Source of the DNA: a virus
IMG/VR virus record: IMGVR_UViG_3300025834_000005
Length of the DNA: 64,000 bases
Strand: one strand, 5' to 3'
The position numbers and the translations under genes were made by a program. Shown here in pieces: positions 679-45,871 of the stretch (positions within the stretch are counted from its first letter, which is position 1; each line of letters opens with the position of its first letter). The notes under the pieces are model-generated. The model saw nothing but the letters and a program-made list of their open reading frames with translations. It made no database searches and was not told the DNA's origin.

Positions 679-693
679 TATGAAATACTTCAA

Positions 694-3930: not shown

Positions 3931-4185
3931 ATGAAAACAAGTTTACTAAAAGTTGTTCTCTGCAAAGAGAGACTACATTGGAATAGGGTTATTGAGATAT
4001 ATGGTAAATTTGACAATATTCTCTCCAAAATGATAGCTGGTACGATTGTATCATTATTATTCACTGTAGGGCATTATTTTCATGTTGTGATGCATGTTTT
4101 ATACGAATTAGTTCTATATGTATTTTATCGTGATGCATTCAAGGGCAATTTGATCAAACTTGCCAATACCTGTAATACAAAATAA
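3931..4185 (+). CDS. small hypothetical membrane protein
   Basis: 84-aa ORF packed 3 nt after the previous stop. Central hydrophobic stretch (MIAGTIVSLLFTVGHYFHVVMHVLYELVLYVF). Confidence 0.45.
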   Translation: MKTSLLKVVLCKERLHWNRVIEIYGKFDNILSKMIAGTIVSLLFTVGHYFHVVMHVLYELVLYVFYRDAFKGNLIKLANTCNTK

Positions 4186-4208
4186 AATTGTCCATAATTA
4201 AAAATAAC

Positions 4209-4243
4209 GAAACGCTAATAGCTATAAAGGTTGTTAGCGTTTC
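4209..4243 (+). terminator. stem-loop (10-bp stem gaaacgctaa/ttagcgtttc, 15-nt loop), weak terminator candidate
   Basis: Perfect inverted repeat 4209-4218 / 4234-4243 in the 78-nt gap after the 3931-4185 ORF. No clear U-tract follows. Confidence 0.4.
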
Positions 4244-4263
4244 TCATAATACATAAATAAGCC

Positions 4264-4482
4264 ATGATTAAATCATTATTAACATATTTGTTTCTACTAT
4301 TCATTGAGTCGATAGTTATAGCCGCAATTATTTTTGTTATATCTTACTATCCATTACAAAATGAATTTGCTATTCACGTTAAATATATTAACTTTGTATA
4401 TTTAACGTTTGGATTTAAAATAATGTCAACAAATTTTATCGCTTTAATGAGTGCGATAGATGCACAAGAAAAACAAGAATAA
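4264..4482 (+). CDS. small hypothetical membrane protein
   Basis: 72-aa ORF with two hydrophobic segments (LLTYLFLLFIESIVIAAIIFVISYY; FVYLTFGFKIMSTNFIALMSAI). Confidence 0.5.
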   Translation: MIKSLLTYLFLLFIESIVIAAIIFVISYYPLQNEFAIHVKYINFVYLTFGFKIMSTNFIALMSAIDAQEKQE

Positions 4483-8510: not shown

Positions 8511-10328
8511 TCAGATTCTTGTGTTATTTCTCATGTCCACAAAATCAGATGATTGATACTCAAATAAGTGTTTCATCTTATCTAAAGATTCGTTAACAAC
8601 TGCTTTTTCGGTGGTATTCTCGCTCAACATTTTACTTTTCTCAACAACGAAAATGTTTTTGGTAGCATCAACATAATAATCATATGATACGATTAGATCA
8701 GCAACGCCTTCATTAACGCCAATTTTACGAGTAGTTGAATCCAATTTATTTGTATACGTATTGCCTAATCCATTAAGATTTAATGCAAACCAATTAGATT
8801 CAGCCTTTTTTGCTTCATTGGCTTCATTTAACGTGAAGTCAATGATGTGTGACTTACCAAAGTCATCAAAATATTTACCGCTCATAAAAGACTCATTTAC
8901 TTTAGCCGTATTCGTAGGCTGTGAATCTTTGTTATACATAGGCTGATTATGACGCATGTCCAATTTCTTCAATCTCATTTCATAATTTTTATCGCCCATA
9001 TCCGTTTTCATACGGTCTTCGAACTTCTTATCAGGTTTAATCGAATAGTCCAAATCGCCAAGACCTAATCTATAGCTATCAACCTCTTCTTGTTCATCAG
9101 TGCTAAGATTTCGTTTTGGAATTTCGTTACCCTTTTCGTTAGCCGAATTACCAACATTTTCAAGAGCATTTCCCTTAGTTTTCTTAATAACATCCTTTTC
9201 AATATCGGAACTAAGTTTTTTAGGGTCTTTAATATCAGTTTGTTGATCTTTCCACTGTAATTCTTTCTCCACATTGATGATTTCTTTAGTACCACTATGC
9301 TGCATATCCTGTTTAAAGTTTTTAGCGTTGTCAGTACCCATTCTATCAACATTCACCAGCGATGGTGTTCTCTTATCTTCTGATATATTTTTTAAACCTG
9401 TTTGTTGTTCGCTTAACTGAGTTAGCTCTGCGTCTAATTCATTTAAAATATCGTTTTCGCTCATATCTTGTTTTGTTTTTTTATTTTCACTCATTGGTGC
9501 AGAAGCTCCGCCGCCATTCATACCTCTCTCAATACCGCCACCCTCTGTTCCGATAGGCTGTTTAGTTGCCATACTATCAGGATTGGTGTCGAGCATGGAA
9601 ACCTCACTAACTTTTTCTTTCTCGTCAACATTACCACCAATATTAGCAGTATCCCATTTATGTGTTTTCATTTGTTTGTTAATCACATTAAGGTCTGAAT
9701 TGCTCATATTTTTTGTCTCATTACCGTAAGCATCAGAATTGTTACCAATGCTCGCCAATGTACTTTCTCTGTTGAATTGCTCATCTAAAATATTGATATA
9801 ATCAGCAAATACAGACGCATTTATTAGATAATTCTCCTGTATAACAGTACCATTAGGAAAAATGGGTTTACGAACTGGTGATAATGACGAATTACCTAAT
9901 AAGTCGCCATTTGGTGACCAAGCCGAAGGGCTTGAGTATGCGCCAGAACTACTTGAGTCTGTTTCATCGATCTCTGTCGCTGTTTTACCAGCTTTATCAG
10001 CTATCTTTTCAATCGCATCGTTTTTTAGTTTATTAATTCCTGATTTATCACGTCTTTTCTTTTCTTTTGGAATAGCCATCTTATATTTCTGAAGAAATTT
10101 AGGACTATTTAGAATATAATCATTGAATATAATATTCATAATAGTTTCGTTATAATGATATCCGTACTTTTCTTCACCGTTTACAGACATATCGTCATAT
10201 ATGGAAGTCAACTTAGGATCAGAGAACACAAGTGTCTCCATTTTTCCAAGCGAAAATATCTTCTTTTTTAACGATTGTTCCTTTTCGTTTAATAAGTTGT
10301 CAATCTCATTTATGTTCATTTTGTTCAT
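8511..10328 (-). CDS. large hypothetical protein (605 aa), low-complexity N/S/K/D/E-rich
   Basis: Long uninterrupted ORF with no enzymatic motif recognised. Composition suggests a disordered or scaffold-like or internal virion protein (speculative). Confidence 0.55.
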   Translation of the reverse strand: MNKMNINEIDNLLNEKEQSLKKKIFSLGKMETLVFSDPKLTSIYDDMSVNGEEKYGYHYNETIMNIIFNDYILNSPKFLQKYKMAIPKEKKRRDKSGINKLKNDAIEKIADKAGKTATEIDETDSSSSGAYSSPSAWSPNGDLLGNSSLSPVRKPIFPNGTVIQENYLINASVFADYINILDEQFNRESTLASIGNNSDAYGNETKNMSNSDLNVINKQMKTHKWDTANIGGNVDEKEKVSEVSMLDTNPDSMATKQPIGTEGGGIERGMNGGGASAPMSENKKTKQDMSENDILNELDAELTQLSEQQTGLKNISEDKRTPSLVNVDRMGTDNAKNFKQDMQHSGTKEIINVEKELQWKDQQTDIKDPKKLSSDIEKDVIKKTKGNALENVGNSANEKGNEIPKRNLSTDEQEEVDSYRLGLGDLDYSIKPDKKFEDRMKTDMGDKNYEMRLKKLDMRHNQPMYNKDSQPTNTAKVNESFMSGKYFDDFGKSHIIDFTLNEANEAKKAESNWFALNLNGLGNTYTNKLDSTTRKIGVNEGVADLIVSYDYYVDATKNIFVVEKSKMLSENTTEKAVVNESLDKMKHLFEYQSSDFVDMRNNTRI

Positions 10329-10343
10329 ATTAGTTTAATATAA

Positions 10344-10556
10344 TTATTTAATGTCTGTCTTCCAAAAATCTTTTTTCTGCCATAATACTTTGAATATGGA
10401 TTCCATAGAATTTTTTATAGTTCTAATCATTTCGTCTCTGGCTGGGTTATTTTTCTTATTAAGTGCTTTACCAACCTCTTTATTCAGAGATTCATCAGAG
10501 AATTTACGCAATTCATCTTTTATAATTCTTTTTATGTCTTCCTCAGTAATTGCCAT
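10344..10556 (-). CDS. hypothetical protein (start revised to MAITEEDIK..)
   Basis: The listed start at 10586 would place the GTATTTAT motif (10577-10584) inside the ORF. The ATG at 10556 lies 20 nt downstream of the motif. Confidence 0.5.
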   Translation of the reverse strand: MAITEEDIKRIIKDELRKFSDESLNKEVGKALNKKNNPARDEMIRTIKNSMESIFKVLWQKKDFWKTDIK

Positions 10557-10572
10557 AATTTGTACGTATTCA

Positions 10573-10613
10573 ATATATAAATACATTAACTTTGAATAAA
10601 CGTATTTATATAT
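10573..10613. repeat. 12-bp perfect inverted repeat atatataaatac / gtatttatatat with 17-nt spacer
   Basis: Arms at 10573-10584 and 10602-10613. One arm is the GTATTTAT upstream motif. Lies in the gap between genes ending at 10636 and starting at 10556. Confidence 0.7.
10577..10584 (-). promoter_or_regulatory. GTATTTAT upstream motif
   Basis: 20 nt upstream of the ATG at 10556. Confidence 0.45.
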
Positions 10614-10635
10614 CGCATTTAAATGCTTAATGCCT

Positions 10636-11427
10636 TTACTTTAATGCTCTGCCTATAAAATATCCACCTACAAGTGCTGTTGGGGTTATAATTAGCATCT
10701 TATTCTTACCAATCGATATACCTGCTCGCTGTATGAAGTTCGGTTTAACGGTTTTCTTATCTAATTGAGGTATCGCATAACTAACAATATCAAATGTCTT
10801 AAAATACTTATTACTGTTCGATACGCTAAATGCCACAGGATTACCTTCCCTCACATTATCTTTCCATAGGAAGTCAATGTATTGAGTATTGATCAAATCG
10901 AACTGATTAAACCTAATTGCTGGCTTATTCGAGGCGTTTAAAGCCTTTACGTTCATAACATCAATGTTGTACTTGATATAGCTTGTACTATCCTTAAAAC
11001 CCACTCTATTATTCAATGAATCCACTGTTACCACTGGATTGCTAAGAGAATCAATTATCACATGTGTCTCGATCAACGCTGCTGCTATTACGGTGTAATC
11101 TTTCTCGGCTTTCTTCACTCTCGCAAGCAAATTCTTTTCATTTGATGTGAGATTATTGTTTTTATCTGTAAGCCCCTTAATTGTACCTTGTAGCGTTAAT
11201 TTTTCGGCAACAATCTCTTTATAAGAGTTTACATGAAATTGAATCGTATCGACCAAAGCATTCTTTAATTTTGTCTCTGTATCAAGCTTTTCCTTTAAAT
11301 TACCAACTCTATTTGAATAGAGCATCCATCCGCCGCCTATTAATACTATAAGAGCTATGACAATTATAATTATCTGCCCTACGTTAATCGTGACTACACG
11401 AGTTGTCTCTGTTGTTGATACTGCCAT
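10636..11427 (-). CDS. N-terminally membrane-anchored coiled-coil protein
   Basis: Single N-terminal TM (IIIIVIALIVLIGGGWMLY) followed by a K/E/L-rich heptad-like region, then a beta-rich C-terminal domain. Near the amidase-like gene, so a lysis accessory role is possible. Confidence 0.5.
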   Translation of the reverse strand: MAVSTTETTRVVTINVGQIIIIVIALIVLIGGGWMLYSNRVGNLKEKLDTETKLKNALVDTIQFHVNSYKEIVAEKLTLQGTIKGLTDKNNNLTSNEKNLLARVKKAEKDYTVIAAALIETHVIIDSLSNPVVTVDSLNNRVGFKDSTSYIKYNIDVMNVKALNASNKPAIRFNQFDLINTQYIDFLWKDNVREGNPVAFSVSNSNKYFKTFDIVSYAIPQLDKKTVKPNFIQRAGISIGKNKMLIITPTALVGGYFIGRALK

Positions 11428-11438
11428 AATATTACGTT

Positions 11439-11903
11439 TTATTGATTATTATTTGTGTCTCCTAAATTTTCAATCCAGTATTTATTAAACTTATCGTAAT
11501 TCGATTCAAGTCTACTGGTTATATCGGTATTAGCCTCATTGTCCTTGTTAAAGGCATCGGAATATTTAAATTCGACGCCAGTGGTATTTTCCACAGGCGG
11601 AACAGTGTACGTAAATTCGATCTCATTATTGATTACGCCACCCCAGAATACGAAATCGTCATAAACTTCAAGCTCATAATAATCAATTGAAACGTTAATA
11701 TCTTGGAATAATCCGTCGATAATATTCTGCTCTCTCTCCTGATCGCCCTGAGTAGCTTTATTCACTCTTTCAGCGTCAGCATTATCAATGGTGACATCCT
11801 CATTAAGTTTTCTGGTGATCTTTAACATGTCACGCATTGTCATGTCAATCTTTTCGCCTTTATTGAAGTGCTCCATTATCTTGGAAATTCTATTGATATT
11901 CAT
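11439..11903 (-). CDS. hypothetical acidic protein
   Basis: 154-aa ORF preceded by the GTATTTAT motif with 15-nt spacing. Confidence 0.5.
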   Translation of the reverse strand: MNINRISKIMEHFNKGEKIDMTMRDMLKITRKLNEDVTIDNADAERVNKATQGDQEREQNIIDGLFQDINVSIDYYELEVYDDFVFWGGVINNEIEFTYTVPPVENTTGVEFKYSDAFNKDNEANTDITSRLESNYDKFNKYWIENLGDTNNNQ

Positions 11904-11918
11904 AGTTAATAATTTATT

Positions 11919-11926
11919 ATAAATAC
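11919..11926 (-). promoter_or_regulatory. GTATTTAT upstream motif
   Basis: 15 nt upstream of the ATG at 11903, directly after the stop of the amidase-like gene. Confidence 0.45.
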
Positions 11927-12526
11927 TTATTTTCTTAATAGTTTAGTAAATTTAGGAATATCAAAATGCGGAATGCAATATGCATCAATATCAAAATAAT
12001 TACTTTTAAAAACAATACCTTTAGACTTATTAATATCCTTATGATAAAAGTCAAAAGAAATACACACAGGCTCGATGTTAAACTTATCGCATAAGTATAA
12101 TGATAATTCGGCTGTTGACTCCATTTGCTCTATGGTGATCTCTTCCCAATAATAATATCCATAATACTTCATTTCAACAATATTACCACCACAAATCTCA
12201 TTCAGATGATTATGCAACCCAAATTCATCCTTTATAAGAGCACCCATGTTTTCCATAACAATACTAATATTATTCTTATTACTGGATTCAATACCCAAGA
12301 ACTTGCTATAATACTTAGGATTATAATGCTCGTAAATCGTACCGTCTCGACCTACAGTATAGGTGTTCCATTCTTTACATACACCATTATCTTTATTAGC
12401 TAATCTAACCAATTGATTATGATCATTTCTATTAGATATGTCTAATATAATCTGATCCTTAGCCGTTTCGCTACTGATATAATTTTTACAAGTAGCTGGA
12501 AAATCTTCAATATTAATGTTAATCAT
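11927..12526 (-). CDS. PGRP / Amidase_2-like protein (possible N-acetylmuramoyl-L-alanine amidase endolysin)
   Basis: 'YTVGRDGTIYEHY', 'NNISIVMENMG', 'ITIEQMESTAELSLYLCDKFNI' and 'YCIPHFDIPKF' follow the order of T7-lysozyme/PGRP amidase blocks. The expected first Zn-ligand His appears as Asp (IILDIS). Confidence 0.45.
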   Translation of the reverse strand: MININIEDFPATCKNYISSETAKDQIILDISNRNDHNQLVRLANKDNGVCKEWNTYTVGRDGTIYEHYNPKYYSKFLGIESSNKNNISIVMENMGALIKDEFGLHNHLNEICGGNIVEMKYYGYYYWEEITIEQMESTAELSLYLCDKFNIEPVCISFDFYHKDINKSKGIVFKSNYFDIDAYCIPHFDIPKFTKLLRK

Positions 12527-12792
12527 ATTTTATATTTTTGTAAAATTTTTTCATACATTTCAAGAGTATCCCAGCCACCAGCAATCCATACAATATCCTC
12601 ATATTTAACCGAGTATTTTGTATGATCTGGTCTCTCTTTAACATCTAAAAGCATTCTTGCGCTTCCTGACATTAAATAGCTGGGTCTTTTTCTGCCTATT
12701 ACATACGTATCATCATCTATACTCTGAATATGTTTATCATGTAAGATTTCTATACCATCTATAACACCCAACCTCGGCTTATTTTTTACCAT
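12523..12792 (-). CDS. hypothetical protein
   Basis: 89-aa ORF coupled to its neighbours by a 1-nt overlap upstream and a 4-nt overlap downstream. Confidence 0.5.
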   Translation of the reverse strand: MVKNKPRLGVIDGIEILHDKHIQSIDDDTYVIGRKRPSYLMSGSARMLLDVKERPDHTKYSVKYEDIVWIAGGWDTLEMYEKILQKYKI

Positions 12793-15700
12793 TATAATGT
12801 GTTTATTGTTAATGTTGATATTTCATTCTCATCTAATTGAACATTGATTACATAATCAGGGTTAATCTCGTGATTATGCTCAATAACCAATACTTTTTGC
12901 ATGTTATCCTTAATTAATTGAAGGATTTCGTTAAATTCCTCGATACTATCGGCACTCAGTTTACCCATAACCTCATCAAGCATGAATATAGTTGGCTTTA
13001 CCTTAGCATTAATTTGATTTAAAGCGAATTTTAAAACAATAGCAGAAAATGTACGTTCCTTACCTGATGCGCTAATGCAGTCAATCACAGCTAACGGACG
13101 GCTATTATAAGCCAATTTAGGTCTAAGATCATCTAAGTCCAGCCATACTTTGAACGCCGACACAGATAAAATACTTGCAAGTGTGTTGTTAATTTTAGGT
13201 ATAATATAATTAACAAGCATCTGTCTTGGGATTCCGTCTCTATGAACACATTTAATGTATAAAGCATAAACATTATCAACATGTTCTTGTGCTTTGAATA
13301 ATTTTACAAGAGACTCTGTTTGAACTATCTTACTATTCGAATCGTTAATAGCTAAACGTTTATTATATATATTAGACTGTACAACCTTTAAATCGTCAGC
13401 ATATTTCTGTATTTTTGCGTCAGCCTGTTTAATACGTTCGCTTAGTTTCTTATTTTCATCAATCTGAATAATATTCTCACCATATCTTATGATTTTCTGA
13501 CCGATAATGTCAAGCTCAAGTTCATTAGTTCTGATATACAGCGGTATCCTTTCAAGCTCGTCAGCCAATTTCAAACGAAGCATATAATCATTCTTGTCGT
13601 TATTTAAAACACCTATCTCAGCAAGAACTCCAACCATTGTAAGACTAATAACTTCGATTTGTTCTTTAACAATATTGATTTCAGCATTTAGTCCGACTAT
13701 ACTATCTTTAAGAGCTATAATGTCTACACTCTCATAGTTTTTAATCGTGTCGGCAATTGAGAACATTTCTGTTTTTAGATCACTTATTTTTTGTTTTATA
13801 TGTTCATTATCCTGAGCAACACTCTGATGACATGTTGGACATGTGTGCTCCGTTGTTCCCTGTTTAAAGCCAATAAGTTCATTTTTAATCTTTAAACCGT
13901 CTCTCTTAAGATTTACAATTTTGCCGTTGATTATCTCAATTTCATGATCTTTTCTACTTATAGTACTTTCAAAATCCTTAATCTTTAATTTAAGGGCATA
14001 TTCTGAATTTCTATGTGTATCTTTTTGAGCAACTAATTCATTGTATCGTGCCTCATCATAAGTATTTTTCAACTCGGACATGCTTTTTTCGATAATTTCA
14101 ATACGCTTATAATAATCGCTAATAGTTATCTTGTATTTCTCAGCACTTCTATTAGCCTGTTCAATATCCATATTATAGATTTCATCATCTATTTTATGCA
14201 TATCTTTATGTAAGGTATCGACATATTTCCTACCGTTACTCATTGAGTTCTCAATTTCGACAACTGTAACCGATTCTAACTCCGTTAATTGTAACTCCAA
14301 TTCGGATATAGAATTTTTAAGTCTTAGAATTTCGTTATCAGAGTTCTCAACATTGCAGTTTATACGCCCCTTTTCGGCTAATCTTTTCTGATTCTTTTTA
14401 CATGCATCGAGTTTTTTATCAAATATGTCAAGTCCACTATCGAATAATAGCGAATCGATGAATGTTGACATATCGTTCGACAATATCTTATTAAGAGTAT
14501 CGGCAGTTGTAACAACAATACGCATAAAATTATCATAACTACCAATCAAAGACTCTATAATTTTCTGAGTCTTTATTCTCTGGTCACCGCTCATATTATC
14601 CAATGAGTTCTGATCATTCATTTCGTCATCAGGTGACGCCATCAGATAATAATTCAATGTTGTTGGAGCACCGTTTATAGCACCGTCCTTAGACCTTGTA
14701 ATGGTTGTCCTCTTTTTTATTCCATAATATTCAGAATTATAATCAAATACCATGTAAGCATCGCAAAAAGTAGCACCGTTTCTATTGTTAACATATCGTG
14801 AATCGCCGAATTTAACACGACCCTCAGTTTCGAGTGATTTGTTATATAGAATGTATGAGATTAATTTAATAAGAGTTGTCTTCCCAGCTGTATTCTTACC
14901 GACAATCTGAAATAAGCCGTTAAGTTCTCTCCAATCAATATCAATAGTCTCATAAGAGGCAAAGTTTCTGCCACCGAATTTAATGATATTGAAATTTCCG
15001 CCCACATCATCAGTATGATCGATTTCGCCTGAAATAATATCATCAAGATCAATAACATCTTTAATTGTTGCAGCCTCAATACCCATAGCATCTAAATGCT
15101 CTGTGAATATCGCTTGTTGGACTGTGGTTTCGTTAATACTTACAAGCGTAACGTCTTCGCTTACAACAATTTTATTATCAATAATGAAGTCGCTTTTATT
15201 AGATACAGACGTAATATTGGGGTATTTGCCTTTAATATAAGCCACCAGCTTATTCTCATTGATCGAAGTTCTAACATATGGTAATGTTTTCCATATAAAT
15301 CTGACCTTCATAAAGGTTGTAGGCTCGTCAATTTCAATGTCAATATCATCAAAATCAACATATGATGATATGATAATGTTTTTAAATGAATAATCGTTAG
15401 CTATAGGCTTTTCAATTACGGTAGATTTTTCTACATTCCATAATAAATAGCCATGAAAATTATCGTCACCCTCACCAAAATCCTGTGCAATAAGCGATGA
15501 CGGATATGACCCGAATAATGCGTTATTTTTATAAAAATATTGCTTTTTGTGAATATCACCAAGAAATAATAGGTCACCATTAAAATCGCCCAAGTTCCTT
15601 AATGTCTTTTTTGTCATTTCAAAACCTGTTACTGTTTGACAGCCGTTTATAGGGTCATGAAATAAGTCAATATACACTCTATTAGGGTCTTTATTGGCGA

Positions 15701-26258: not shown

Positions 26259-29200
26259 TTATACTGATGGTGTTAATGTGTCATTGCCGTTTATGTATCC
26301 TAAACCTGTTGAAATCGTGTATGTTAATGTTGCAACACGATCACCACTACTAAGTGCTTTAACAGGATAACCTGTAGAAAGCACAACTGTTGAGGTTGAA
26401 TCGATATTATACGTACTTGTATATCCAGTATTTATAAAATTATATCCAGTACCCGTATCAGCCTGTCTAATCATTGTACCGCCTTTATATAAGGATGCTG
26501 CGACATTTACGGCTGTAGTGCCACTCACGCCATACCAAAATGCTCTCGCATCGACTACAATTGTATCTTCTAACGGATACAATGTTTTAAAATTTATTAA
26601 ATCGATTTTTACAGCCTCAAAACCAATACCCATATTATCGCCACCCCATGTTAGAATTGGAATTCCTGTTGAGGGATAAATAGTCCTTCCTGACCCAGAT
26701 GACCCAGATGGAACGCCCCATCCAAGATAATCTTGCTGAGTTGATTGTCCAATATTAGGACTAACAATTCGAGTCCTTGTATCTAAATCACTACCATCGG
26801 TAAATTGATAGGTTAATACCATATAATCAGCATCAAATACAAATGCGCCAACTATTGTTGAACCTGTTACTGAGCATCCCATACTATCAGTAACCATAAT
26901 CATAATTTCTGATCCACCTGATAAGCCTGTAGATGTGTTAGTTGCCGATGAACTATTTAAAGTATACTGACCAACACTCCAAACATAATCATATGGAGAT
27001 GATCCTCCAACAACTGCTACGGTTGCCGTTCCGTCAGAAGCACCAACAGTGGTTGGGTTTGTTGATGTGAACGATATAGTCATAGGATTACTCACACATG
27101 GCGATACTGTTGTGGTGGTTGTGGTGGTTGTGGTGGTTACAACATCGTCAAGCCATTCGTATAACGGCATAGGCTGTAATTTTTTTATAATACTGCCATC
27201 ATCGCCAAGATATTTGAAATTGTAATCAGTATTAAAAACCGTAGCATTTTCAGTATCGCCAGATAATGCGATCATGCCCATATAAGCACCTCTACGATAA
27301 GCGAATTTCTGTTTCGTAAACATACTGTTTCGAACAATCATGCCACTTTTTCTTAATATAATTGTCGGTGATAATAATTTGTCAACGAATTTATGAAAGA
27401 AAGCATTATATTTGTTAAGGAATGCATATAGATTTGAAAAAGTATAGCCATTGGAGTGATTCAGATCATCAACCTGCGATAGTCCATTTTTTAAATAATC
27501 CAAATAAACTTTCAGCAAAGATGGATACCATCCGCCTTTGCCGTCTGTAATTGTTTTACGATTCTTAGCATTAATTAAATTTTTCTGAGTCTGATCAATA
27601 AAATCCATGAATGATAATTGTGTTATATTATCAATACCGTATACCTTATAGGTATTTAAATAATAAACACTAAAAACGGTATAATGTGCGATTGGTTGTG
27701 TTAACACAATCTTATAAGGATTAGATATATCCATATAATAATCACTATTAACGGCAAGACCAATACCGTTCATCAATATTTTTATATCACTTGGCTTATT
27801 TACCCTGTAATTAATCATTAAAACATACTTACCAATGGTGGTATCGAAGAATACTTTACTATTATCACTTGAGTTATAGTAAAGTATTTCATTATCCATA
27901 TTGACTGTATTATTTGAAACTATCACAAATGTAACCTGAACAATAGGGTCTATAATAAGGTAATCAGTAAAGAATGAATTCAGTATCAGTATCTGCGTAG
28001 GGTCACTCGGATTAATCTTATAATCACCATCAATTCCTGTTCCAGTTCCAGCATTTATCAATTCAATACCGTTAATTGTTAGCTGAACCTTTCCATTAGG
28101 TTCTGATGGTAGTTGTAGAATTGTTCCCACAGCATTTGCAGATACTCTTGTTGAAATATATCTAACAAGTGTATCATTGGCTACCAAACTATTTTTATAG
28201 ATGTATGTTATCTCAACAACATCATCACTTCCAGATACAGGATTGTTTAAAGTAACGACATTTCCAGATAATGAATAGTCAATGTCATATGATGTAGTGC
28301 CAGTATTTCCACTTCTATTGGTACTTAATAGAATACCGTTAAATCTAACCTCAACATCACCCTCTGGCATATAAGGCAACGTAAATACAGTGTCGCTATT
28401 ACTATGATCTAATGATAAATTTATAAAAAAATTAGAATCTGGAATAGCATTTGTTTTAGCATATGAAAACATATCATACTCAATACCTCTGGCAACGTCT
28501 AATCCGACATCGACTTCTTTGGTATTTAAAACAAGTCTACTATCTTCCTGATAATATTGAGGAGTTGACTGATGTGAACGAATTGTCTCGCCAGACTGTA
28601 CCCATGATTTTTTATTATCAATTGTCTGATAAAGATCAAAGCCAGCTTTTCTAAAAACATTCATATAATCCTGTCCACTATCCGTATTACCAGACACCTG
28701 AAAATAGAAGTCATTAGTTTCCAAAGGCGCAACAGGATATCCGTTAACATCAAATGGTAATGAATTCGTAGGATAATTCTGTTTTATTCTTAATGGTGAA
28801 TTTTCTGCGGGGTTAATTTTACCATCAACAGTATAAACATATTCAGTTATATTAATAAATGGCTCAGGAATACCTATAAGTAAAAATATAGACTTGATAG
28901 CATCCCTTGTGCCTTTTGATTTCCAATAATAGTTGGTGTTAATTAAAATTCGTCTCCAAACCTCGATATCTATTTCAAGAGGCAATAAATCGGAATTTAA
29001 ATTTCTTTCCTTATCATCAACAGATAATAAGCTATTCATTAAATCAACCTCATTGGTAATTGGGAAATAATCCCAGCCAAATGTTTGAGCTAAATTTGAA
29101 ACGAATGCATCAGGAACATTGTCCTTCTTATCATATGACACACGATTAACATACTGTAACGAATCCACAAATATTCTGAGTTGATCAAACTCATAGCCAT

Positions 29201-30257
29201 AAGTCCTTAATAATTTAGTGATTTTATTATTATCAGTTAAATCATAAGCTTTTAGTGATGATGTTGTCAAAAATCTGGCAATTAAGTCAGTTTTTATAGC
29301 ATCAAATTTACCGCCAATATTTAATAATGCCTCTAAAAATTGCTTATAAGGCATATTATTTATGTCTATATTATAGCCATCAATGGTAGGCCATATCAAG
29401 TTACTGTTAATATATTCAATCTCGCCATCATCATTTATTGATGGATTATTTACAGTGAATGAAAAACCTTTATCAACCCTCTCTGATAACATATATCTCT
29501 CATAATCCTTCAAGCCAAGTCTATATTCATCGAATACATTAACATTTGGCTTTATATGGAAGTCAAACTTACCATAAGCTGAATTATTTGTAAACTCAAA
29601 AGGATTGCCTTCTGCTGTGATAATTATAAAATCGTTTACAGAATCGTATCCTGTAAAACTTGTTATCTTATATGAATTTTCGGAATTGAATGTAGACCAT
29701 ATTGCGTATTTCTCAAATGATATGCAAACATTACTTAATTCAGTACCTGTATAGTGTGTGCTAAAGTCACTGTTATATGTTAAATTAAATTTACTATCTA
29801 TAACAGATACAGGCACTTTGAAGGTTGAGGTATTGCTTATTGGGTCGAATAAATAATCATAATATGTTACGATTTGACTCCTATCCTTCTGTGAATTAGA
29901 GAACAAGCTACCTGGGAAATTACTGATTATGTTTTGCACAGCAAATCTAAAATACTCATAAGCAGAGCCAAATCTAATATATTTATTTATGTCAGATTTT
30001 TCTAAATTTAATTTTATCTCATTGGTGTTAGAGAAAATTAAATCGGATTGTGTTTTGGTAACGCCGAGGGTCTCCAATGTGATAGGCTTTACGAATCCGC
30101 TCAGCTTATTACTATGATTGACAGTTCTTTTGTTATCGAAATTTGAAGTAACTCTAAACTTACCGAATGAAAAAATGGTTTCAGATGTAATGTTATTAAA
30201 GTTTCCACCATTGACATTCTGATCCTGATTATATGTTAAAACTCTTTTTATAGCCAC
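26259..30257 (-). CDS. giant (1332 aa) baseplate/fibre-associated structural protein with poly-Thr linker and SprB-type repeat; GTG start
   Basis: Uninterrupted 4-kb ORF with start codon GTG (cac at 30255-30257). Has a 10xThr linker, then 'TNPTTVGASDGTATVAVVGGSSPYDYVWS' (SprB-repeat pattern G.sDG..tV.v.GG..PY.Y.WS), then a C-terminal 'DLDTRT...TWGGDN' beta-domain. Confidence 0.6.
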   Translation of the reverse strand: MAIKRVLTYNQDQNVNGGNFNNITSETIFSFGKFRVTSNFDNKRTVNHSNKLSGFVKPITLETLGVTKTQSDLIFSNTNEIKLNLEKSDINKYIRFGSAYEYFRFAVQNIISNFPGSLFSNSQKDRSQIVTYYDYLFDPISNTSTFKVPVSVIDSKFNLTYNSDFSTHYTGTELSNVCISFEKYAIWSTFNSENSYKITSFTGYDSVNDFIIITAEGNPFEFTNNSAYGKFDFHIKPNVNVFDEYRLGLKDYERYMLSERVDKGFSFTVNNPSINDDGEIEYINSNLIWPTIDGYNIDINNMPYKQFLEALLNIGGKFDAIKTDLIARFLTTSSLKAYDLTDNNKITKLLRTYGYEFDQLRIFVDSLQYVNRVSYDKKDNVPDAFVSNLAQTFGWDYFPITNEVDLMNSLLSVDDKERNLNSDLLPLEIDIEVWRRILINTNYYWKSKGTRDAIKSIFLLIGIPEPFINITEYVYTVDGKINPAENSPLRIKQNYPTNSLPFDVNGYPVAPLETNDFYFQVSGNTDSGQDYMNVFRKAGFDLYQTIDNKKSWVQSGETIRSHQSTPQYYQEDSRLVLNTKEVDVGLDVARGIEYDMFSYAKTNAIPDSNFFINLSLDHSNSDTVFTLPYMPEGDVEVRFNGILLSTNRSGNTGTTSYDIDYSLSGNVVTLNNPVSGSDDVVEITYIYKNSLVANDTLVRYISTRVSANAVGTILQLPSEPNGKVQLTINGIELINAGTGTGIDGDYKINPSDPTQILILNSFFTDYLIIDPIVQVTFVIVSNNTVNMDNEILYYNSSDNSKVFFDTTIGKYVLMINYRVNKPSDIKILMNGIGLAVNSDYYMDISNPYKIVLTQPIAHYTVFSVYYLNTYKVYGIDNITQLSFMDFIDQTQKNLINAKNRKTITDGKGGWYPSLLKVYLDYLKNGLSQVDDLNHSNGYTFSNLYAFLNKYNAFFHKFVDKLLSPTIILRKSGMIVRNSMFTKQKFAYRRGAYMGMIALSGDTENATVFNTDYNFKYLGDDGSIIKKLQPMPLYEWLDDVVTTTTTTTTTTVSPCVSNPMTISFTSTNPTTVGASDGTATVAVVGGSSPYDYVWSVGQYTLNSSSATNTSTGLSGGSEIMIMVTDSMGCSVTGSTIVGAFVFDADYMVLTYQFTDGSDLDTRTRIVSPNIGQSTQQDYLGWGVPSGSSGSGRTIYPSTGIPILTWGGDNMGIGFEAVKIDLINFKTLYPLEDTIVVDARAFWYGVSGTTAVNVAASLYKGGTMIRQADTGTGYNFINTGYTSTYNIDSTSTVVLSTGYPVKALSSGDRVATLTYTISTGLGYINGNDTLTPSV
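26975..27100 (-). other. SprB-type repeat unit within the 1332-aa protein
   Basis: The GxSDGxxTVxVxGGxxPYxYxWS pattern is characteristic of the Flavobacterium SprB gliding-adhesin repeat. Confidence 0.55.
27108..27137 (-). repeat. 10 consecutive Thr codons; (tgtggtggt)x3 at 27111-27137
   Basis: ACC ACC ACA repeated on the coding strand. Confidence 0.9.
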
Positions 30258-39137: not shown

Positions 39138-42100
39138 TTAAACTGGTACTTCCGTAACACGTCCTATTAGAAATAGAGGTTTACGATAAGGTATCCATTT
39201 TTTCAGATCATTTGACATTTTCGCAGTTGCCCCATTATTATCGTTTACAGCAAGAGTTATATGTCTATTATCATTAATAGACCCGAATCCAGAGACGCCA
39301 ACAGCCATAACATTTTCATCAATGGCATAACTCTCGACCTTTAATCTAAGTGTATATCCTAAATATTTCTCATAAAAACTGTCAATCTCTCCGAAATTAA
39401 TTGTCATATGATCACATATAAGTTCAGTGCCACCAGAGGCATTTGTTCTATATTGATTATAATCATCTGGAATCAAATCAGCGAAAGCGTTGCGTAATTT
39501 ATTGATTGATTTATCATCAAGAACAACGGCTGAATATTTTACAAGCTTTTTCTTACTCATTGGGTTTACGGAACTTAGTTCATTAACAGACTCCTCAACA
39601 AATTTATCGTTGGGTTTTACAAATTTATAAAAATCTGGATAATAATTATATTGAGGATTTCTTTTTTTAAAATTTCTTAAATTAGCTATTAACGAGCCAT
39701 CATTCTCATACTCATCATTCATTATCTCATATTGAGCATCACCTAAGCCAAATCCATTGGTTAGACCGATCCTATGCATCAACGTGTATTTTTTTAAGTT
39801 CTCTGTTGAGTAAATCTCGTTACCGCTTGTAAACAATCCAATATTCTCAGCCATTCTTGAATGCGTAAAATATTTATCCTGTAGAGCAACGTAAATGTTA
39901 CCGCTTGGGTCACCAATTGCTCGAACGTCAGCATCAAAATTAGCCAATGATCGTGGATTCTTATATATCGCAATACGATCACTTTTAGTGTCTAAAACAT
40001 ATGCCATAGGCTTTTCTTCCTGTGTCTGCAAATGTGTTTTATACTCTTTTTCAAATTCATCATCCTGATCAGGAATTCCGAATTTATTTGCAGCATATTT
40101 ATCGCCAACGCCTTCTTGGGTAATCTTGGTATCGTTAATTGGTTTATTATCGCTCTTAATATCTAAAAAATATCTATCATAATACCTAAACTGTGAGTTT
40201 TTTTGAATCAGTTTTTTAAATATCTTCAACATAACTATTCTACGATCACTTTCGTCAGCATTTACATAACTACTGGTTGTATCGCTAAGTCCGAATGTAT
40301 TAGTATTACCAACACGATTAAGAAGTAAAAATCGATCAAGATTATCATAAAAACTATCATCGGTAACAGCAAATTTTAAAGCTACCGCCATTTCGCCATG
40401 AATGAAATTACCATTCTTCTGAGCAACATAAATATTACCATAAACATCAGCAATGGCACGTGTAGATTGATCAAAATTACTTAAAGATTGCGGATTTTTA
40501 TATATCCCCACATTTTCACGTATATTATTTACATTATCATAATTTTTAACATATGCTACAGGTTTTTCAGACATTAGTAGGTTATGAAGCTTATAATCCT
40601 TTTCAAACTCGTCATCAGGGTCTGGGATACCAAATTTCTTTTCAGCGTATTTATCTCCGACGCCCTCTTGTTCAAGAGATTCCTGTAAGTTAAAGTTTTC
40701 GCTTGTAGCGTCAGGAACTTTACTAACCATATTTGTAATAGTAATTATAGCTGGATTATACGCTATAATATGTCTAACGCCACCATATTCCTTATTAATT
40801 AGTTGTCCATCAAAACCCAGCTTTGACATGCCTTGAATAAATAATCTGGGCTGATGTCTAAAAAAATCAACCCATATTTGTTGGTATAAATCCTTCTCGT
40901 TATCAGCGTACTCTGACATCATTGAAATCGCTTTAGCAAGTCCTCTGTTTGGGTTTATATCATAATTCTGAGCATCTTCCTTCCATTGAGGAGACATTTT
41001 AATTAAAGATGACATCATAGAGACCGATACAACCTTCTTATTTGCTGCGTTCGTCATCTTACGAGGTCTTAATACAACAGAATAAATATATTCACCATAC
41101 ATATGAGCCTCTTCTTCGGATTCGGTGAAGTAAATTCCAGGGCCTTCTTGATCGGTTGCATTTTCCTTACCGACAAATTCATCAGTAAACTTATCAAATT
41201 TATGCTTACTACCATGATACATAACATATTCGCCACCTTTTATAGTTTCATTTAAAGGTTCATCAGTACCATCTGGTGTGGGTTTATTATCAGAACTAAT
41301 GTATTTTAAAATATCCTCACGATTATTTTTCAGCTTATCAGTGTATATCTTCAATAAAATTTCCTTAAATTTATTCTTTATTTGTTCACCCCTAAAACCA
41401 AGATTCATAAGATCATTACCGTTTACAGGTAAATCTGCATTTGACTTTGGATACTTACCTGACAATAATTCGTCGCAAGCCATTTTTATAGACTTAGGTA
41501 TTATGTTTGACTTTAAAGACTCTGGATATGTTGCGTACATATTATAAGCAATTGATCTGGCTTTATATATGTTTACAGTATTGCCCTCTGAATCGAATGC
41601 AAACTTCAATGCTTTTATTTCCTTATAGGTGTTTATCTCACCACGCAATTTAGTTTTATAGAATTCATCGGGAGCATCTATAGTGTCGCCAATTAACAGG
41701 TAAATAAATTCGCCCATTGTTTTAGCATTCCTAAATAACTCAGCCTTAGAATTGAAATCAACCATTGGGTTAACTCCGAATAATTGTTTGTATATACCTG
41801 TCTCAACCAAAAGATTTGCACCGATTAAATGATCGCCCTTTTGGACTATTTTATCGAATTCAGTTAATATTCTCTCTGATGGTATTTCTCTTATCTTCGA
41901 AACGCTACCCTGAATAGCTTTCATGGTTTCAGGTTCGATTGTAAAACCAAATCTTGAAGCCATCTGAACAGCACGAAGCATACGCAAAGGGTCTTCGGTA
42001 AAAGCCGAAGGATCGACCATTCGAATAATTTTATTACGAATATCATCAACACCGCCAAAAGGGTCAATAACATTACCCTCAATATCGTTAGCTATCGCAT

Positions 42101-43361
42101 TGATTGTTAGGTCACGTCTACGTAAATCATCCTCAATTGGTAATGCATGATCTGATTTTGTCTCAATGCCCTTATGACCACCAGCACCTGTTGCTGTGTC
42201 GGTTCGTGGTATAGCAACATCAATATCCTCTGTACTACCAGTTGGTTTGAATTTCAGAACTCCAAATGATTTGCCCACAAGGTTTACTTGTCCATATTTA
42301 CCAAGTATCTGTTCAAGAGTGTCCATAGGAACGCCTGTGATCATAATATCAAGGTCTTTAGACTCTTTACCTAAATATTTATCACGCACAGCACCGCCAA
42401 CAGAGTATATCTTTCCGCCGAGCTTATTAATCTCAGCAGTGAAAGGTATTTGATCTAAACTATATATTTCGGCTTCATTCAAACTATTACCACTGGTTAT
42501 ATGCGCTTCCAATTCTTTTTTTAGCTCATCAAAATAAAAATCAATGCTTTCACCATCAAGGTCTGTGAAATTACCGTTAACGTCTCTGGCGATTCCGCCA
42601 TTATCATCCCTTTTAAAATATTTATGAATCCAGCCTTGCTGAGACATCATTCCTAAATGATTAACCTTCTGCTGTATTTCGTCAACATAATCGGATAATA
42701 CCATATTACCATTTCTATAGCCAAATTCACGAATAGCTTTAATATCTTTAGCCATTTCTATTTTAAAAGCAGGTAAATCCCTGTTTTTCACGGCAATCTC
42801 CAAAGGCTCTAACAATTTTAAAACCATTTCACTGAATTCGCTATCGCTTGGGTCTACAGATTCGTCAATCGGATTCTTTTTAAAACGAGACTTAATATAA
42901 TTGTTAATAGATTTATCGGTATAGCCAAGTAATTTACCCACTTCCACAGCCTCTTCTGGTGTTGTATCAGCAGCATAGCCATTATGAGCATTCATGTGAT
43001 CACGAAGCTTTAACGCATTTGCCTTATTAGTATAAATAATAAATGATTTTGTACCGTCCTTTCTAATGATAGGAATCGCATTAATGTTATGCATTGATAA
43101 ATTATTCCTAACATCAGCATCAAGATTATTCATAAGTAATAATCCCACGTCTCGTTTACCGTTTATTAATGTATTTACAGTTCCATCAGCACCGTAAGCC
43201 TCACTTGCATCAATTTCCTCATTAACAATTGAACTAATTTTCAGATTGTTCATATCACCCTGATTACATGCGGCAGATTTACCGTTAAGTTTCCCTAACT
43301 TGCATTTATCTTTAACCTCAACTGTTGAGCTATTTTTCATCCAAGATATAATTCTTTTCAT
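39138..43361 (-). CDS. 1407-aa multi-domain 'polyvalent' protein: unknown N-domain + class-II tRNA nucleotidyltransferase + ART-like module + 2 x unknown repeat domain + 2H phosphoesterase
   Basis: Single uninterrupted ORF. Domain motifs are listed in the sub-features below. Confidence 0.8.
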   Translation of the reverse strand: MKRIISWMKNSSTVEVKDKCKLGKLNGKSAACNQGDMNNLKISSIVNEEIDASEAYGADGTVNTLINGKRDVGLLLMNNLDADVRNNLSMHNINAIPIIRKDGTKSFIIYTNKANALKLRDHMNAHNGYAADTTPEEAVEVGKLLGYTDKSINNYIKSRFKKNPIDESVDPSDSEFSEMVLKLLEPLEIAVKNRDLPAFKIEMAKDIKAIREFGYRNGNMVLSDYVDEIQQKVNHLGMMSQQGWIHKYFKRDDNGGIARDVNGNFTDLDGESIDFYFDELKKELEAHITSGNSLNEAEIYSLDQIPFTAEINKLGGKIYSVGGAVRDKYLGKESKDLDIMITGVPMDTLEQILGKYGQVNLVGKSFGVLKFKPTGSTEDIDVAIPRTDTATGAGGHKGIETKSDHALPIEDDLRRRDLTINAIANDIEGNVIDPFGGVDDIRNKIIRMVDPSAFTEDPLRMLRAVQMASRFGFTIEPETMKAIQGSVSKIREIPSERILTEFDKIVQKGDHLIGANLLVETGIYKQLFGVNPMVDFNSKAELFRNAKTMGEFIYLLIGDTIDAPDEFYKTKLRGEINTYKEIKALKFAFDSEGNTVNIYKARSIAYNMYATYPESLKSNIIPKSIKMACDELLSGKYPKSNADLPVNGNDLMNLGFRGEQIKNKFKEILLKIYTDKLKNNREDILKYISSDNKPTPDGTDEPLNETIKGGEYVMYHGSKHKFDKFTDEFVGKENATDQEGPGIYFTESEEEAHMYGEYIYSVVLRPRKMTNAANKKVVSVSMMSSLIKMSPQWKEDAQNYDINPNRGLAKAISMMSEYADNEKDLYQQIWVDFFRHQPRLFIQGMSKLGFDGQLINKEYGGVRHIIAYNPAIITITNMVSKVPDATSENFNLQESLEQEGVGDKYAEKKFGIPDPDDEFEKDYKLHNLLMSEKPVAYVKNYDNVNNIRENVGIYKNPQSLSNFDQSTRAIADVYGNIYVAQKNGNFIHGEMAVALKFAVTDDSFYDNLDRFLLLNRVGNTNTFGLSDTTSSYVNADESDRRIVMLKIFKKLIQKNSQFRYYDRYFLDIKSDNKPINDTKITQEGVGDKYAANKFGIPDQDDEFEKEYKTHLQTQEEKPMAYVLDTKSDRIAIYKNPRSLANFDADVRAIGDPSGNIYVALQDKYFTHSRMAENIGLFTSGNEIYSTENLKKYTLMHRIGLTNGFGLGDAQYEIMNDEYENDGSLIANLRNFKKRNPQYNYYPDFYKFVKPNDKFVEESVNELSSVNPMSKKKLVKYSAVVLDDKSINKLRNAFADLIPDDYNQYRTNASGGTELICDHMTINFGEIDSFYEKYLGYTLRLKVESYAIDENVMAVGVSGFGSINDNRHITLAVNDNNGATAKMSNDLKKWIPYRKPLFLIGRVTEVPV
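39141..39548 (-). other. domain: 2H phosphoesterase-like (two HxT motifs), aa ~1272-1407
   Basis: 'LICDHMTINFG' and 'DNRHITLAVND' are spaced ~49 aa apart in a ~135-aa C-terminal domain, the H-x-T/S-x duplication that defines LigT/CPDase/Acb1-type 2H enzymes. Confidence 0.6.
39627..40118 (-). repeat. internal protein-domain duplication, copy B (aa ~1082-1245)
   Basis: 'EGVGDKYAANKFGIPDQDDEFEKEYKTH..EKPMAYV..IYKNPRSLANFDADVRAIGDPSGNIYVA..'. Period ~183 aa relative to copy A. Confidence 0.8.
40164..40670 (-). repeat. internal protein-domain duplication, copy A (aa ~898-1066)
   Basis: 'EGVGDKYAEKKFGIPDPDDEFEKDYKLH..EKPVAYV..IYKNPQSLSNFDQSTRAIADVYGNIYVA..'. Confidence 0.8.
40752..41234 (-). other. 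domain: ART-like (polyvalent-protein ADP-ribosyltransferase-type) module, aa ~710-870
   Basis: 'VMYHGSKHKFDKFTDEF..GPGIYFTESEEEAHMYGEYIYSV' and the distal 'GFDGQLI..GGVRHIIAYNP' fit my recollection of the H-G-S/T ... G-x-Y-F-T ... pattern of ART domains found in phage polyvalent proteins. Confidence 0.4.
41292..42462 (-). other. domain: complete class-II nucleotidyltransferase (CCA-adding enzyme / poly(A) polymerase family), aa ~300-690
   Basis: 'GGAVRDKYLGKESKDLDIMITG' (GGxVRD...DxD), 'RRDLTINAIA', 'EDPLRMLRAVQMASRFGF', and tail-domain-like 'LPVNGNDLMNLGFRGEQIKNKFKEILLKIYTDKLKNNREDILKYI'. Confidence 0.8.
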
Positions 43362-45169: not shown

Positions 45170-45871
45170 TTATTTATAATTTGTAAAACATATTGATATA
45201 TACTCAATTAAATTTGGAACAGTCTCCATTTTTTGTATCTCTTGCATTGTATACCATCCATATGCTGTATGTTCGCCATTTAATTTAACATCCGAATCAT
45301 CGCCATTAAAACGATCAGCGAATATATGCTCGACATTTAACACATCGTCATATGTTCTTTCAATTGTTAATCTTTTTATAATATTGTCAAGTTTAATTCC
45401 AGTTTCCTCATAAACCTCACGTTTACATGCATCCTCTGGTGATTCATCATCCTCTATTTTACCGCCAGCCAAACCATATTTACCAGCAGCCCAACAGTTC
45501 TCGCCTCTTTTTAAAAGCAGAAATTTATTATCCTTATTGGCGATAACACCGAGTGCATTCTCCTGTTTGTTTAAGTTTTCAGATTCATTTAAAGCACCTA
45601 TATTAATCTTTCTTGCTGAATTTAGACTATTATCAACATATTTTTGCATGTCAACGCCACCAGCTAATAAATATTGAACATCATTAGCACCCATTCCAGC
45701 CATATCATGTTTGAGCCTTTTTAATGCTTGGTATGTTAATGTCCTATTTTTTAGAATATACTTAGCCCTACGAATCCCATCGCTGTCAGGATATCTTGTA
45801 ATCGCAGCACTGATGATATTTAAAACATCTTTAGGTACTACGAAATTTTTGCCGTATAGTTCACTATTCAT
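45170..45871 (-). CDS. Nudix hydrolase with ~100-aa N-terminal extension
   Basis: Nudix box 'GGKIEDDESPEDACKREVYEETGI' (Gx5Ex7REUxEExGU). Confidence 0.8.
   Translation of the reverse strand: MNSELYGKNFVVPKDVLNIISAAITRYPDSDGIRRAKYILKNRTLTYQALKRLKHDMAGMGANDVQYLLAGGVDMQKYVDNSLNSARKINIGALNESENLNKQENALGVIANKDNKFLLLKRGENCWAAGKYGLAGGKIEDDESPEDACKREVYEETGIKLDNIIKRLTIERTYDDVLNVEHIFADRFNGDDSDVKLNGEHTAYGWYTMQEIQKMETVPNLIEYISICFTNYK

Follow-up and report, generated by a model that had tools for sequence, protein, structure and literature searches.

A stretch of 64,000 nucleotides (referred to here as the window) from the IMG/VR virus record IMGVR_UViG_3300025834_000005, which represents roughly positions 66-130 kb (~19%) of a 328,453-bp metagenomic phage contig, carries on its minus strand an open reading frame (ORF, 39138..43361) of 1407 codons without interruption. 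We found that residues 300-692 of the encoded protein are predicted from the sequence to constitute an intact, whole class II CCA-adding-type nucleotidyltransferase (CCA domain). Five domain types and a duplicated module are combined in this protein of a huge phage (at least 328 kb), and its ART-PolyVal, 2H and NleE-like domains place it among the polyvalent phage proteins. On balance, we lean toward the view that the constant core of this polyvalent protein is devoted to healing and rebuilding of tRNA 3'-ends, with the CCA-adding enzyme working in cis with a predicted 2H phosphoesterase of the CPD type. The features of the protein and their occurrence among its homologues are summarized in Table 1.

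When the CCA domain was compared with Pfam, matches to the PolyA_pol head (E 5.5e-24) and to PolyA_pol_RNAbd (E 2.7e-14, 53 bits) were obtained. PHROG 2244 (tRNA nucleotidyltransferase) matched at E 4.5e-63 and the NCBIfam model PRK13299 (Bacillus-type CCA tRNA nucleotidyltransferase) at E 3.1e-48, with residues 308-692 covering positions 13-394 of the 396 model positions. In the PDB, the CCA-adding enzyme of Geobacillus stearothermophilus was matched (1MIV; E 1e-27, 101 bits). Neck, body and tail are collinear with full-length enzymes. The tail family tRNA_NucTran2_2 was matched weakly by the window protein (17 bits) and above cut-off by its relative P0010 (30.4 bits). Alignment with 1MIV, with E. 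coli Cca (b3056) and with a stand-alone phage homologue indicated that motifs A-E are intact, and the motif positions are at least 80-95% conserved among 120 homologues, the columns of motif A being invariant. All homologue counts given here refer to the best 120 of 367 matches from a search of 5.8 billion proteins, in which domains were mapped locally.

An initial annotation of this DNA had described a full-length CCA-adding-type enzyme, not a remnant, within a giant phage protein, and these data confirm that observation. The motifs it quoted are all present in the translation (aa 322-339, 415-424, 456-466, 644-688), and the end-to-end PRK13299 match, motifs A-E, the loop, the body and the tail support a whole enzyme. 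In the alignment to CCA-adding enzymes, the catalytic carboxylates, the flexible loop and the EDxxR motif are all retained. The interval it gave for the enzyme (41292-42462) falls within a few bases of the in-frame limits 41286-42464, but position 42462 is out of frame. The large domains that it noted on both flanks, without recognizing them, are an NleE-like module upstream and the ART, the repeats and the 2H domain downstream. The phage origin of the protein is backed by gp25 and baseplate-wedge genes, by PolB and by IMG/VR relatives.

E. coli Cca is a proven CCA-adding enzyme, and in CC-adding enzymes the flexible loop is deleted. The segment that connects motif A with motif B (PRT..TG.GGHKGF) initially seemed family-specific. 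It turned out that this loop can be aligned with the E. coli Cca loop position by position; the two differ by one residue, and nothing is deleted. ALARTERKSGS-GYTGF in the E. coli enzyme and AIPRTDTATGAGGHKGI in the window protein are of the same type. The CC-adding structures 3WFO-3WFS matched the window protein at only ~33 bits.

One might suspect a tailing enzyme, that is, a polymerase that adds poly(A) or oligonucleotide tails to mRNAs of the host or the phage, for instance to mark them for decay. The sequence of the head domain cannot cleanly split class II CCA-adding enzymes from bacterial poly(A) polymerases (PAP): E. coli PAP structures scored 89-91 bits with the CCA domain as compared with 101 bits for 1MIV, and the pcnB model TIGR01942 reached 127.6 bits (cut-off 305.65). 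However, the PAP models cover only head and neck (aa 310-529), whereas PRK13299 matches from end to end, including the tail. Moreover, the loop and the strand following motif A resemble E. coli Cca and not PAP I. This strand reads LVGKSFGVLKF in the window protein and LVGRRFRLAHV in E. coli PAP. The PAP signature that Martin and Keller are said to have described in 2004 is [LIV][LIV]G[RK][RK]Fx[LIV]h[HQL][LIV], and presumably LVGKSFGVLKF differs from it at three constrained positions. Thus, we regard a tailing function as very improbable.

The second element of the proposed core is the predicted C-terminal 2H domain. Its two HxT motifs (H1318-M-T1320 and H1367-I-T1369) are found in the expected order and spacing, and all four HxT residues are invariant among 24 aligned members of the family. 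The Pfam family tRNA_lig_CPD (PF08302) was matched by 23 of these 24 members (best E 1.7e-8), while Acb1 was matched by none. In fungal tRNA ligase, tRNA_lig_CPD constitutes the cyclic phosphodiesterase domain, which is of the 2H type, and judging from these profile matches the 2H domain of the window protein appears closest to this CPD domain.

The best 120 matches are all giant proteins (826-2405 amino acids). When the window protein was compared with its close relative in L002, the CCA domain was 90% identical, whereas the other domains shared about 55-64% identity. Together with the presence of the CCA domain in every homologue, this identifies it as the constant and most constrained hub of the family, around which the periphery is shuffled. 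An example of such shuffling can be seen in L002 itself (9467-13336, compared with window 39138-43361), where a third repeat module fills the ART slot and the 125-aa helical insert preceding the CCA domain is gone. This difference is a cassette-like domain exchange inside one gene. In addition to the fused copies listed in Table 1, L017 and L018 each encode HAD_SAK_1 in a gene of its own, immediately following the giant gene.

Table 1. Features of the giant protein, positions in the window and occurrence of its domains among the best 120 homologues
Feature	Residues (aa)	Window position	Strand	Basis or remark	Homologues
Whole ORF, polyvalent protein, 1407 aa	1-1407	39138..43361	-	public gene call P0001 begins at Met8, 1400 aa	
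Two-Cys module	1-50	43212..43361	-		113/120
NleE-like module (predicted cysteine methyltransferase fold)	45-175	42837..43229	-	AF2, Foldseek and profile	82-115/120 depending on the search used; always upstream of CCA
Linker or insert, mainly helical	176-299	42465..42836	-	missing from L002/P0002 and most homologues	
Predicted class II CCA-adding-type nucleotidyltransferase (head, neck, body, tail)	300-692	41286..42464	-	Pfam, PHROG, NCBIfam and PDB matches	120/120
Motif A of CCA domain, GGAVRDKYLGKESKDLDI	322-339			GGxVRD...DxD, both catalytic carboxylates present	
Flexible loop of CCA domain	385-413				
Motif B of CCA domain, RRDLTINAIA	415-424			RRD	
Motif C of CCA domain, DPFGG..D	433-441				
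Motif D of CCA domain, EDPLRMLRAVQ	456-466			EDxxR nucleotide template	
Motif E of CCA domain	495-505			ER...E	
Tail of CCA domain, LPVNGNDLMNLGF...ILKYI	644-688				
ART-PolyVal ADP-ribosyltransferase (H-Y-D type)	709-871	40749..41237	-	PF18760 33.9 bits, cut-off 31.2	19/120, either side of CCA
Repeat module, copy 1	886-1072	40146..40706	-	EGVGDKYAEKKFGIP... YKNPQSL... H... R; uncharacterised domain	55/120 (repeat module)
Repeat module, copy 2	1073-1255	39597..40145	-	~180-aa module	
2H phosphoesterase	1256-1407	39141..39596	-	both HxT motifs	87/120 (any 2H)
CPD-type 2H					63/120; downstream of CCA in 63/63, C-terminal in 50/63
PF13563/Acb1-like 2H					39/120
Both 2H types					15/120
GNAT					28/120
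HAD_SAK_1 phosphatase, fused					4/120
NUDIX, fused					2/120
N-terminal kinase-like extension (PHROG 4301)				absent in window protein	92/120
NUDIX hydrolase gene, separate, three genes upstream of giant gene		45170..45871	-	syntenic in relatives	

Several observations weigh against a core of CCA-adding enzyme and CPD-type 2H domain dedicated to tRNA repair. The CCA domain scored 164.8 bits with the NF009814 equivalog of NCBIfam, which has a cut-off of 290, and every other CCA equivalog model likewise scored under its own cut-off. These values indicate a divergent, phage-specific class II lineage that is not orthologous to any curated bacterial group. The 2H domain of the window protein itself matched tRNA_lig_CPD at 20.8 bits, which is under the Pfam cut-off of 23. 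When this domain was compared with the PDB by sequence and profile, only spurious matches were obtained, and its alignment with E. coli ThpR (hhalign) was not significant (probability 2.9%). No 2H domain was detectable in 33 of the 120 homologues, which indicates that the coupling of CCA and 2H domains is frequent but not obligatory, and a HAD_SAK_1 gene was not found in the window. Finally, a second type of 2H domain occurring in relatives gave matches to PF13563 and also to the anti-CBASS family Acb1 (PF23474), the latter at 27.2 and 25.2 bits (Pfam cut-off 27). Such matches raise the possibility that the 2H domains target nucleotide signals instead of RNA ends.

The last point leads to an alternative in which the 2H domain degrades host immune nucleotide signals (Acb1-like, or of the 2'-5' oligoadenylate type), so that the protein would be a general array of anti-defence effectors and its CCA domain would have a role other than repair. 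Polyvalent 2H domains have indeed been proposed to counter nucleotide signalling or to act as RNases, because no linkage to RNA ligases exists for them (PMC5512222). A NUDIX gene linked to the locus would also fit. However, the 2H domain of the window protein belongs to the other subtype, the one that matches tRNA_lig_CPD and never Acb1, and the Acb1 matches of the relatives lie at or below the Pfam cut-off. Moreover, the most conserved domain of the family, the CCA domain, would be left without a role. We consider this anti-signalling function improbable.

Returning to repair of tRNA 3'-ends, the following sequence of events can be envisaged. A metal-independent RNase of the host or of a competitor would trim or cut tRNA 3'-ends and leave a 2',3'-cyclic phosphate. 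The 2H domain, if it follows the chemistry of its family, would open this cyclic phosphate and give a 3'-OH. In those relatives in which HAD_SAK_1 is fused or encoded by the next gene, this putative phosphatase would remove residual phosphate. The CCA domain, for which the enzyme type is predicted from its sequence, would then re-add C, C and A to its presumed substrate, a tRNA or a tRNA-like RNA, in a template-free manner, so that the tRNA could be charged again. The analysis shows which domains are present, that their catalytic residues are conserved, that they follow one another in a fixed order and that RNA-repair phosphoesterases have been recruited again and again, while the substrates and the coupling between the domains are deduced. 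We favor repair because the 2H domain is closest to CPD, because HAD_SAK_1 is fused or adjacent in relatives and because a TROVE/Ro60 gene is present on the contig. The initial annotation had argued from the fusion context for a repair-type or tailing role; these three associations speak for the repair part, but the tailing part found no such backing, since the pcnB match is confined to head and neck and scores lower.

Hosts often halt phages by damaging their own tRNAs, to which phages are known to respond with spare tRNAs or with ligase repair of cut anticodon loops. Candidate host toxins that may cut or block tRNA acceptor ends include HEPN/HepT-type RNases, CdiA-CT-type tRNases, MenT/AbiEii nucleotidyltransferases and CapRel-type pyrophosphokinases. 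The family of giant proteins suggests a third route, in which the acceptor 3'-end would be healed and rebuilt by a fast-evolving multi-enzyme protein, and its compact set of domains has substrates that are directly testable in vitro.

An extended version of the repair scheme can be formulated, according to which the protein is a self-contained repair pathway that is packaged into the capsid and co-injected with the DNA like T4 Alt. Here, the 2H domain would convert cyclic phosphate ends to 3'-OH/2'-phosphate, the CCA domain would extend them and the adjacent ART would strip the internal 2'-phosphate thus created with NAD+, in the manner of Tpt1 following tRNA ligation. If true, this would be the first RNA-directed activity of an ART-PolyVal domain and the first repair pathway relying on CCA addition and not on ligation. 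We consider this extended version quite improbable.

A more conventional explanation is housekeeping maturation, in which the CCA domain matures tRNAs of the phage, or RNAs resembling them, whose genes do not encode the CCA, and in which the fusion only ensures co-expression or co-delivery of effectors that do not share a pathway, in line with the classical view of polyvalent proteins. In agreement with the initial annotation, no tRNA gene was detected in the window by ARAGORN or by Rfam at gathering thresholds. That annotation had taken the missing tRNAs as an argument against a helper role, and this argument proved weak because the scan covered 84 kb of the 328-kb contig (the window and 10 kb beyond each end), because a tRNA-model match lies ~5 kb outside the window and because about 18-22 tRNAs are frequent in jumbo phages (PMC7824862). 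The Rfam tRNA-model match is located at positions 4158-4281 of the same-contig region L021 and scores 42.6 bits. It carries a 64-nt insertion in place of the anticodon arm, and its discriminator A is followed by CGA instead of an encoded CCA. Maturation would also be compatible with the homologues that lack a 2H domain and with an ART of variable position that is not associated with the CPD-type 2H (p = 0.33). On the other hand, the CPD-type 2H domain follows the CCA domain in all 63 proteins carrying it, 2H domains of any type are frequent (87/120), and the RNA-repair phosphatase HAD_SAK_1 has repeatedly been recruited to the giant protein or to the adjoining gene. Furthermore, in 13 of 14 related loci there were no tRNA genes within 10 kb on either side of the giant gene. 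Weighing these data, we judge simple maturation to be rather unlikely, but it deserves serious consideration.

The tRNA-model match is part of a region with additional features. L021 (2316-4467), which belongs to the same contig and precedes window position 1 by 5-7 kb, contains a gene for a 477-aa TROVE/Ro60-like protein followed by a 720-nt non-coding gap that includes the match. By eye, a motif resembling GGCGTTCG...GTTACTTC occurs approximately five times in this gap. The region may represent a phage Ro/Y-RNA module and may provide a possible substrate of the CCA enzyme.

Among the known systems, E. coli Cca (b3056) offers a close parallel for the combination of activities that we propose. 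It is annotated in RefSeq as "fused CCA tRNA nucleotidyltransferase/phosphohydrolase", and enzymes of the E. coli type are called "multifunctional CCA addition/repair protein" in NCBIfam (NF008137). The two proteins share the class II head and motifs A-E, and in both a phosphoesterase is present in cis with the nucleotidyltransferase, so that by analogy a similar logic of end-healing and CCA-rebuilding may apply. The HD domain of E. coli Cca reportedly has 2',3'-cyclic phosphodiesterase, 2'-nucleotidase and phosphatase activities, as Yakunin and coworkers are said to have described in 2004. In contrast to E. coli Cca, in which the HD domain is embedded in the body, the 2H domain of the window protein is found ~560 residues downstream. 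Moreover, body and tail are here of the Firmicute type (PRK13299), the overall identity is 27%, and the enzyme is embedded in a 1407-aa protein beside three or four unrelated domain types.

The stand-alone Firmicute-type CCA-adding enzymes (1MIV, PRK13299) are collinear with the CCA domain from end to end, have no HD domain and share ~42% identity in head and neck (1MIV). They differ from it by their loop between motifs A and B, which is YEDYRRPESV there and of the E. coli type here, by the lack of a giant-protein context and by the low equivalog score of the window protein (165 versus 290 bits). The best protein match among GenBank phages was a stand-alone CCA-adding enzyme, a 388-aa ORF of a 636-kb uncultured phage (LR756504.1), which is 40% identical and agrees in its GHKGF loop and its tail. 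PHROG 2244 likewise represents stand-alone phage enzymes. Unlike in these single-domain proteins, the CCA domain is a multi-enzyme hub in the window protein and in at least 120 relatives. Stand-alone CCA-adding enzymes have already been listed as RNA-repair components of jumbo phages (PMC7824862; also PMC7162821).

With the polyvalent proteins (Iyer et al., 2017; PMC5512222), the family shares ART-PolyVal, 2H, GNAT and kinase-like domains, the organization as giant multi-enzyme chain and the rapid shuffling. The term "CCA" appears nowhere in that paper, and the Pol-beta nucleotidyltransferases described there are minimal, MNT-like, encoded by conjugative elements and predicted to modify proteins (PMC5512222). 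In a Pfam search, neither the zincin MPTase hub nor the MuF domain of polyvalent proteins was detected in the window protein. Fungal and plant Trl1 (CPD) and the "Swiss Army Knife" RNA-repair proteins have in common with the family a CPD-like 2H domain, HAD_SAK_1 (in relatives) and the presence of an RNA-end enzyme in one polypeptide. Unlike Trl1, the end-restoring enzyme would here be a CCA-adding nucleotidyltransferase and not an RNA ligase, and no polynucleotide kinase domain was detected. A CCA-adding domain of polyvalent proteins was not described in the literature searched, with Burroughs and Aravind (2016) being outside that scope, and the same literature held no mention of an NleE-like domain in phage proteins. 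Thus, stand-alone CCA-adding enzymes of jumbo phages and polyvalent ART, GNAT, kinase and 2H domains are known, and our predictions would add a CCA-adding hub and a putative NleE-like methyltransferase to the polyvalent repertoire.

For metagenomic DNA, an artefact (an assembly error, a contig of chimeric origin or a pseudogene in decay) has to be considered as well. We found no point in favor of it. The identical protein is present on 7 contigs from different assemblies, and a relative with a 90%-identical CCA part keeps the same reading frame, with an orthologous ORF of 1289 aa in the IMG/VR relatives. At least 120 giant homologues show the same domain order, and four of the domains have kept their catalytic residues. 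The probability of an artefact is therefore close to negligible. Near-identical DNA was not found among GenBank phages.

Outside the proposed core, the protein starts with a two-Cys module, in which two invariant cysteines lie in the motif KC.LGG.G.TS.ACNQGD (aa 19-36, window 43254-43307, minus strand). For the adjoining NleE-like module, the AF2 model has pLDDT values >90 across residues 50-165, and when this model was submitted to Foldseek, NleE (4R29) was the one PDB structure matched significantly (E 1.6e-4, prob 1.00, TM 0.47). NleE is a type III effector and functions as SAM-dependent cysteine methyltransferase. When the profile of the module family was used, 4R29 was the top match by sequence (E 0.077), and R70, E137 and Y155, which are conserved in the module, were paired with R107, E191 and Y212 of NleE. 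These NleE residues bind SAM (PMC4239114). The homologous module of the relative P0052 matched Pfam NleE at 27.3 bits (cut-off 27).

The H-Y-D residues of the ART-PolyVal domain are H716 in YHGS, Y744 in GIYFT and D851 in GFDGQ, which are conserved among the 19 homologues carrying it; this triad was defined by Iyer et al. (2017; PMC5512222). When a Tpt1-like partnership of the ART with the CPD domain was examined, no association of the two was found (12/19 vs 51/101, p = 0.33). The repeat module follows the pattern EGVGDKYAEK.FGIP ... KNPxSL ... plus an invariant H and an invariant R. Its AF2 model is confident (pLDDT 89), and Foldseek searches of residues 886-1255 against PDB and BFVD gave no neighbour at E <= 0.001. 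A profile search retrieved 779 representative clusters, among them many stand-alone proteins of 170-210 aa and tandem arrays of up to ~6 copies; inspection of short carriers gave no functional clue. Most likely, the ART, the repeats and the NleE-like module function as independent effectors that modify the host or counteract its defence, and they are gained and lost from one related phage to another.

The giant gene is located between replication genes and baseplate genes, a position that is not decisive on virion packaging. Upstream we found genes for DnaB, an SNF2 helicase, PolB and NUDIX, and downstream genes for a glycosyltransferase, gp25 and baseplate wedge proteins. The gene order from PolB/NUDIX to the baseplate genes is conserved around the homologues of three other phages (longest contigs 326-357 kb), so that the giant gene keeps its genomic position in four or more of the phage contigs sampled (~326-357 kb). 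The NUDIX gene is found in these relatives at L016 6636-7421, L017 7274-8056 and L018 7233-8009, four genes upstream of the giant gene (three in the window). Its product is homologous to the NUDIX domain fused N-terminally to the giant protein in P0009 and P0017. Its synteny in the four phages examined and the fused homologues suggest a functional link.

Downstream of the giant gene, L017 (15654-17127) contains a gene for a LAGLIDADG homing endonuclease and the separate HAD_SAK_1 gene. In L018 (39-2882 and 15110-18185), an ArdC-N protein and a HAD_SAK_1 gene are encoded, and the SNF2 gene carries a LAGLIDADG insertion. The region that follows the giant gene is thus variable, and the locus has the character of a hot spot for accessory or counter-defence functions.

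The N-terminal extension that matches PHROG 4301 was inspected in P0065 (aa 1-830) and P0030 (aa 1-630). By eye, it contains 2-3 repeats in which a glycine loop and a lysine are reminiscent of kinases (RIGSGSGRIVFDI..KVFKLAK). Kinase domains have been reported in polyvalent proteins, and the extension may be their counterpart. The ORFs upstream of the giant gene were considered as split-off parts of this extension, and this was dismissed for lack of homology.

The window has a G+C content of ~32%, and in this AT-rich DNA a scan for promoters and terminators was uninformative. Downstream of the baseplate genes, an ORF of 1332 aa (window 26259-30257, minus strand) gave a weak match to the SprB repeat, below the Pfam cut-off. 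It may encode a fibre or an adhesin, and the SprB-repeat match hints at a Bacteroidota host.

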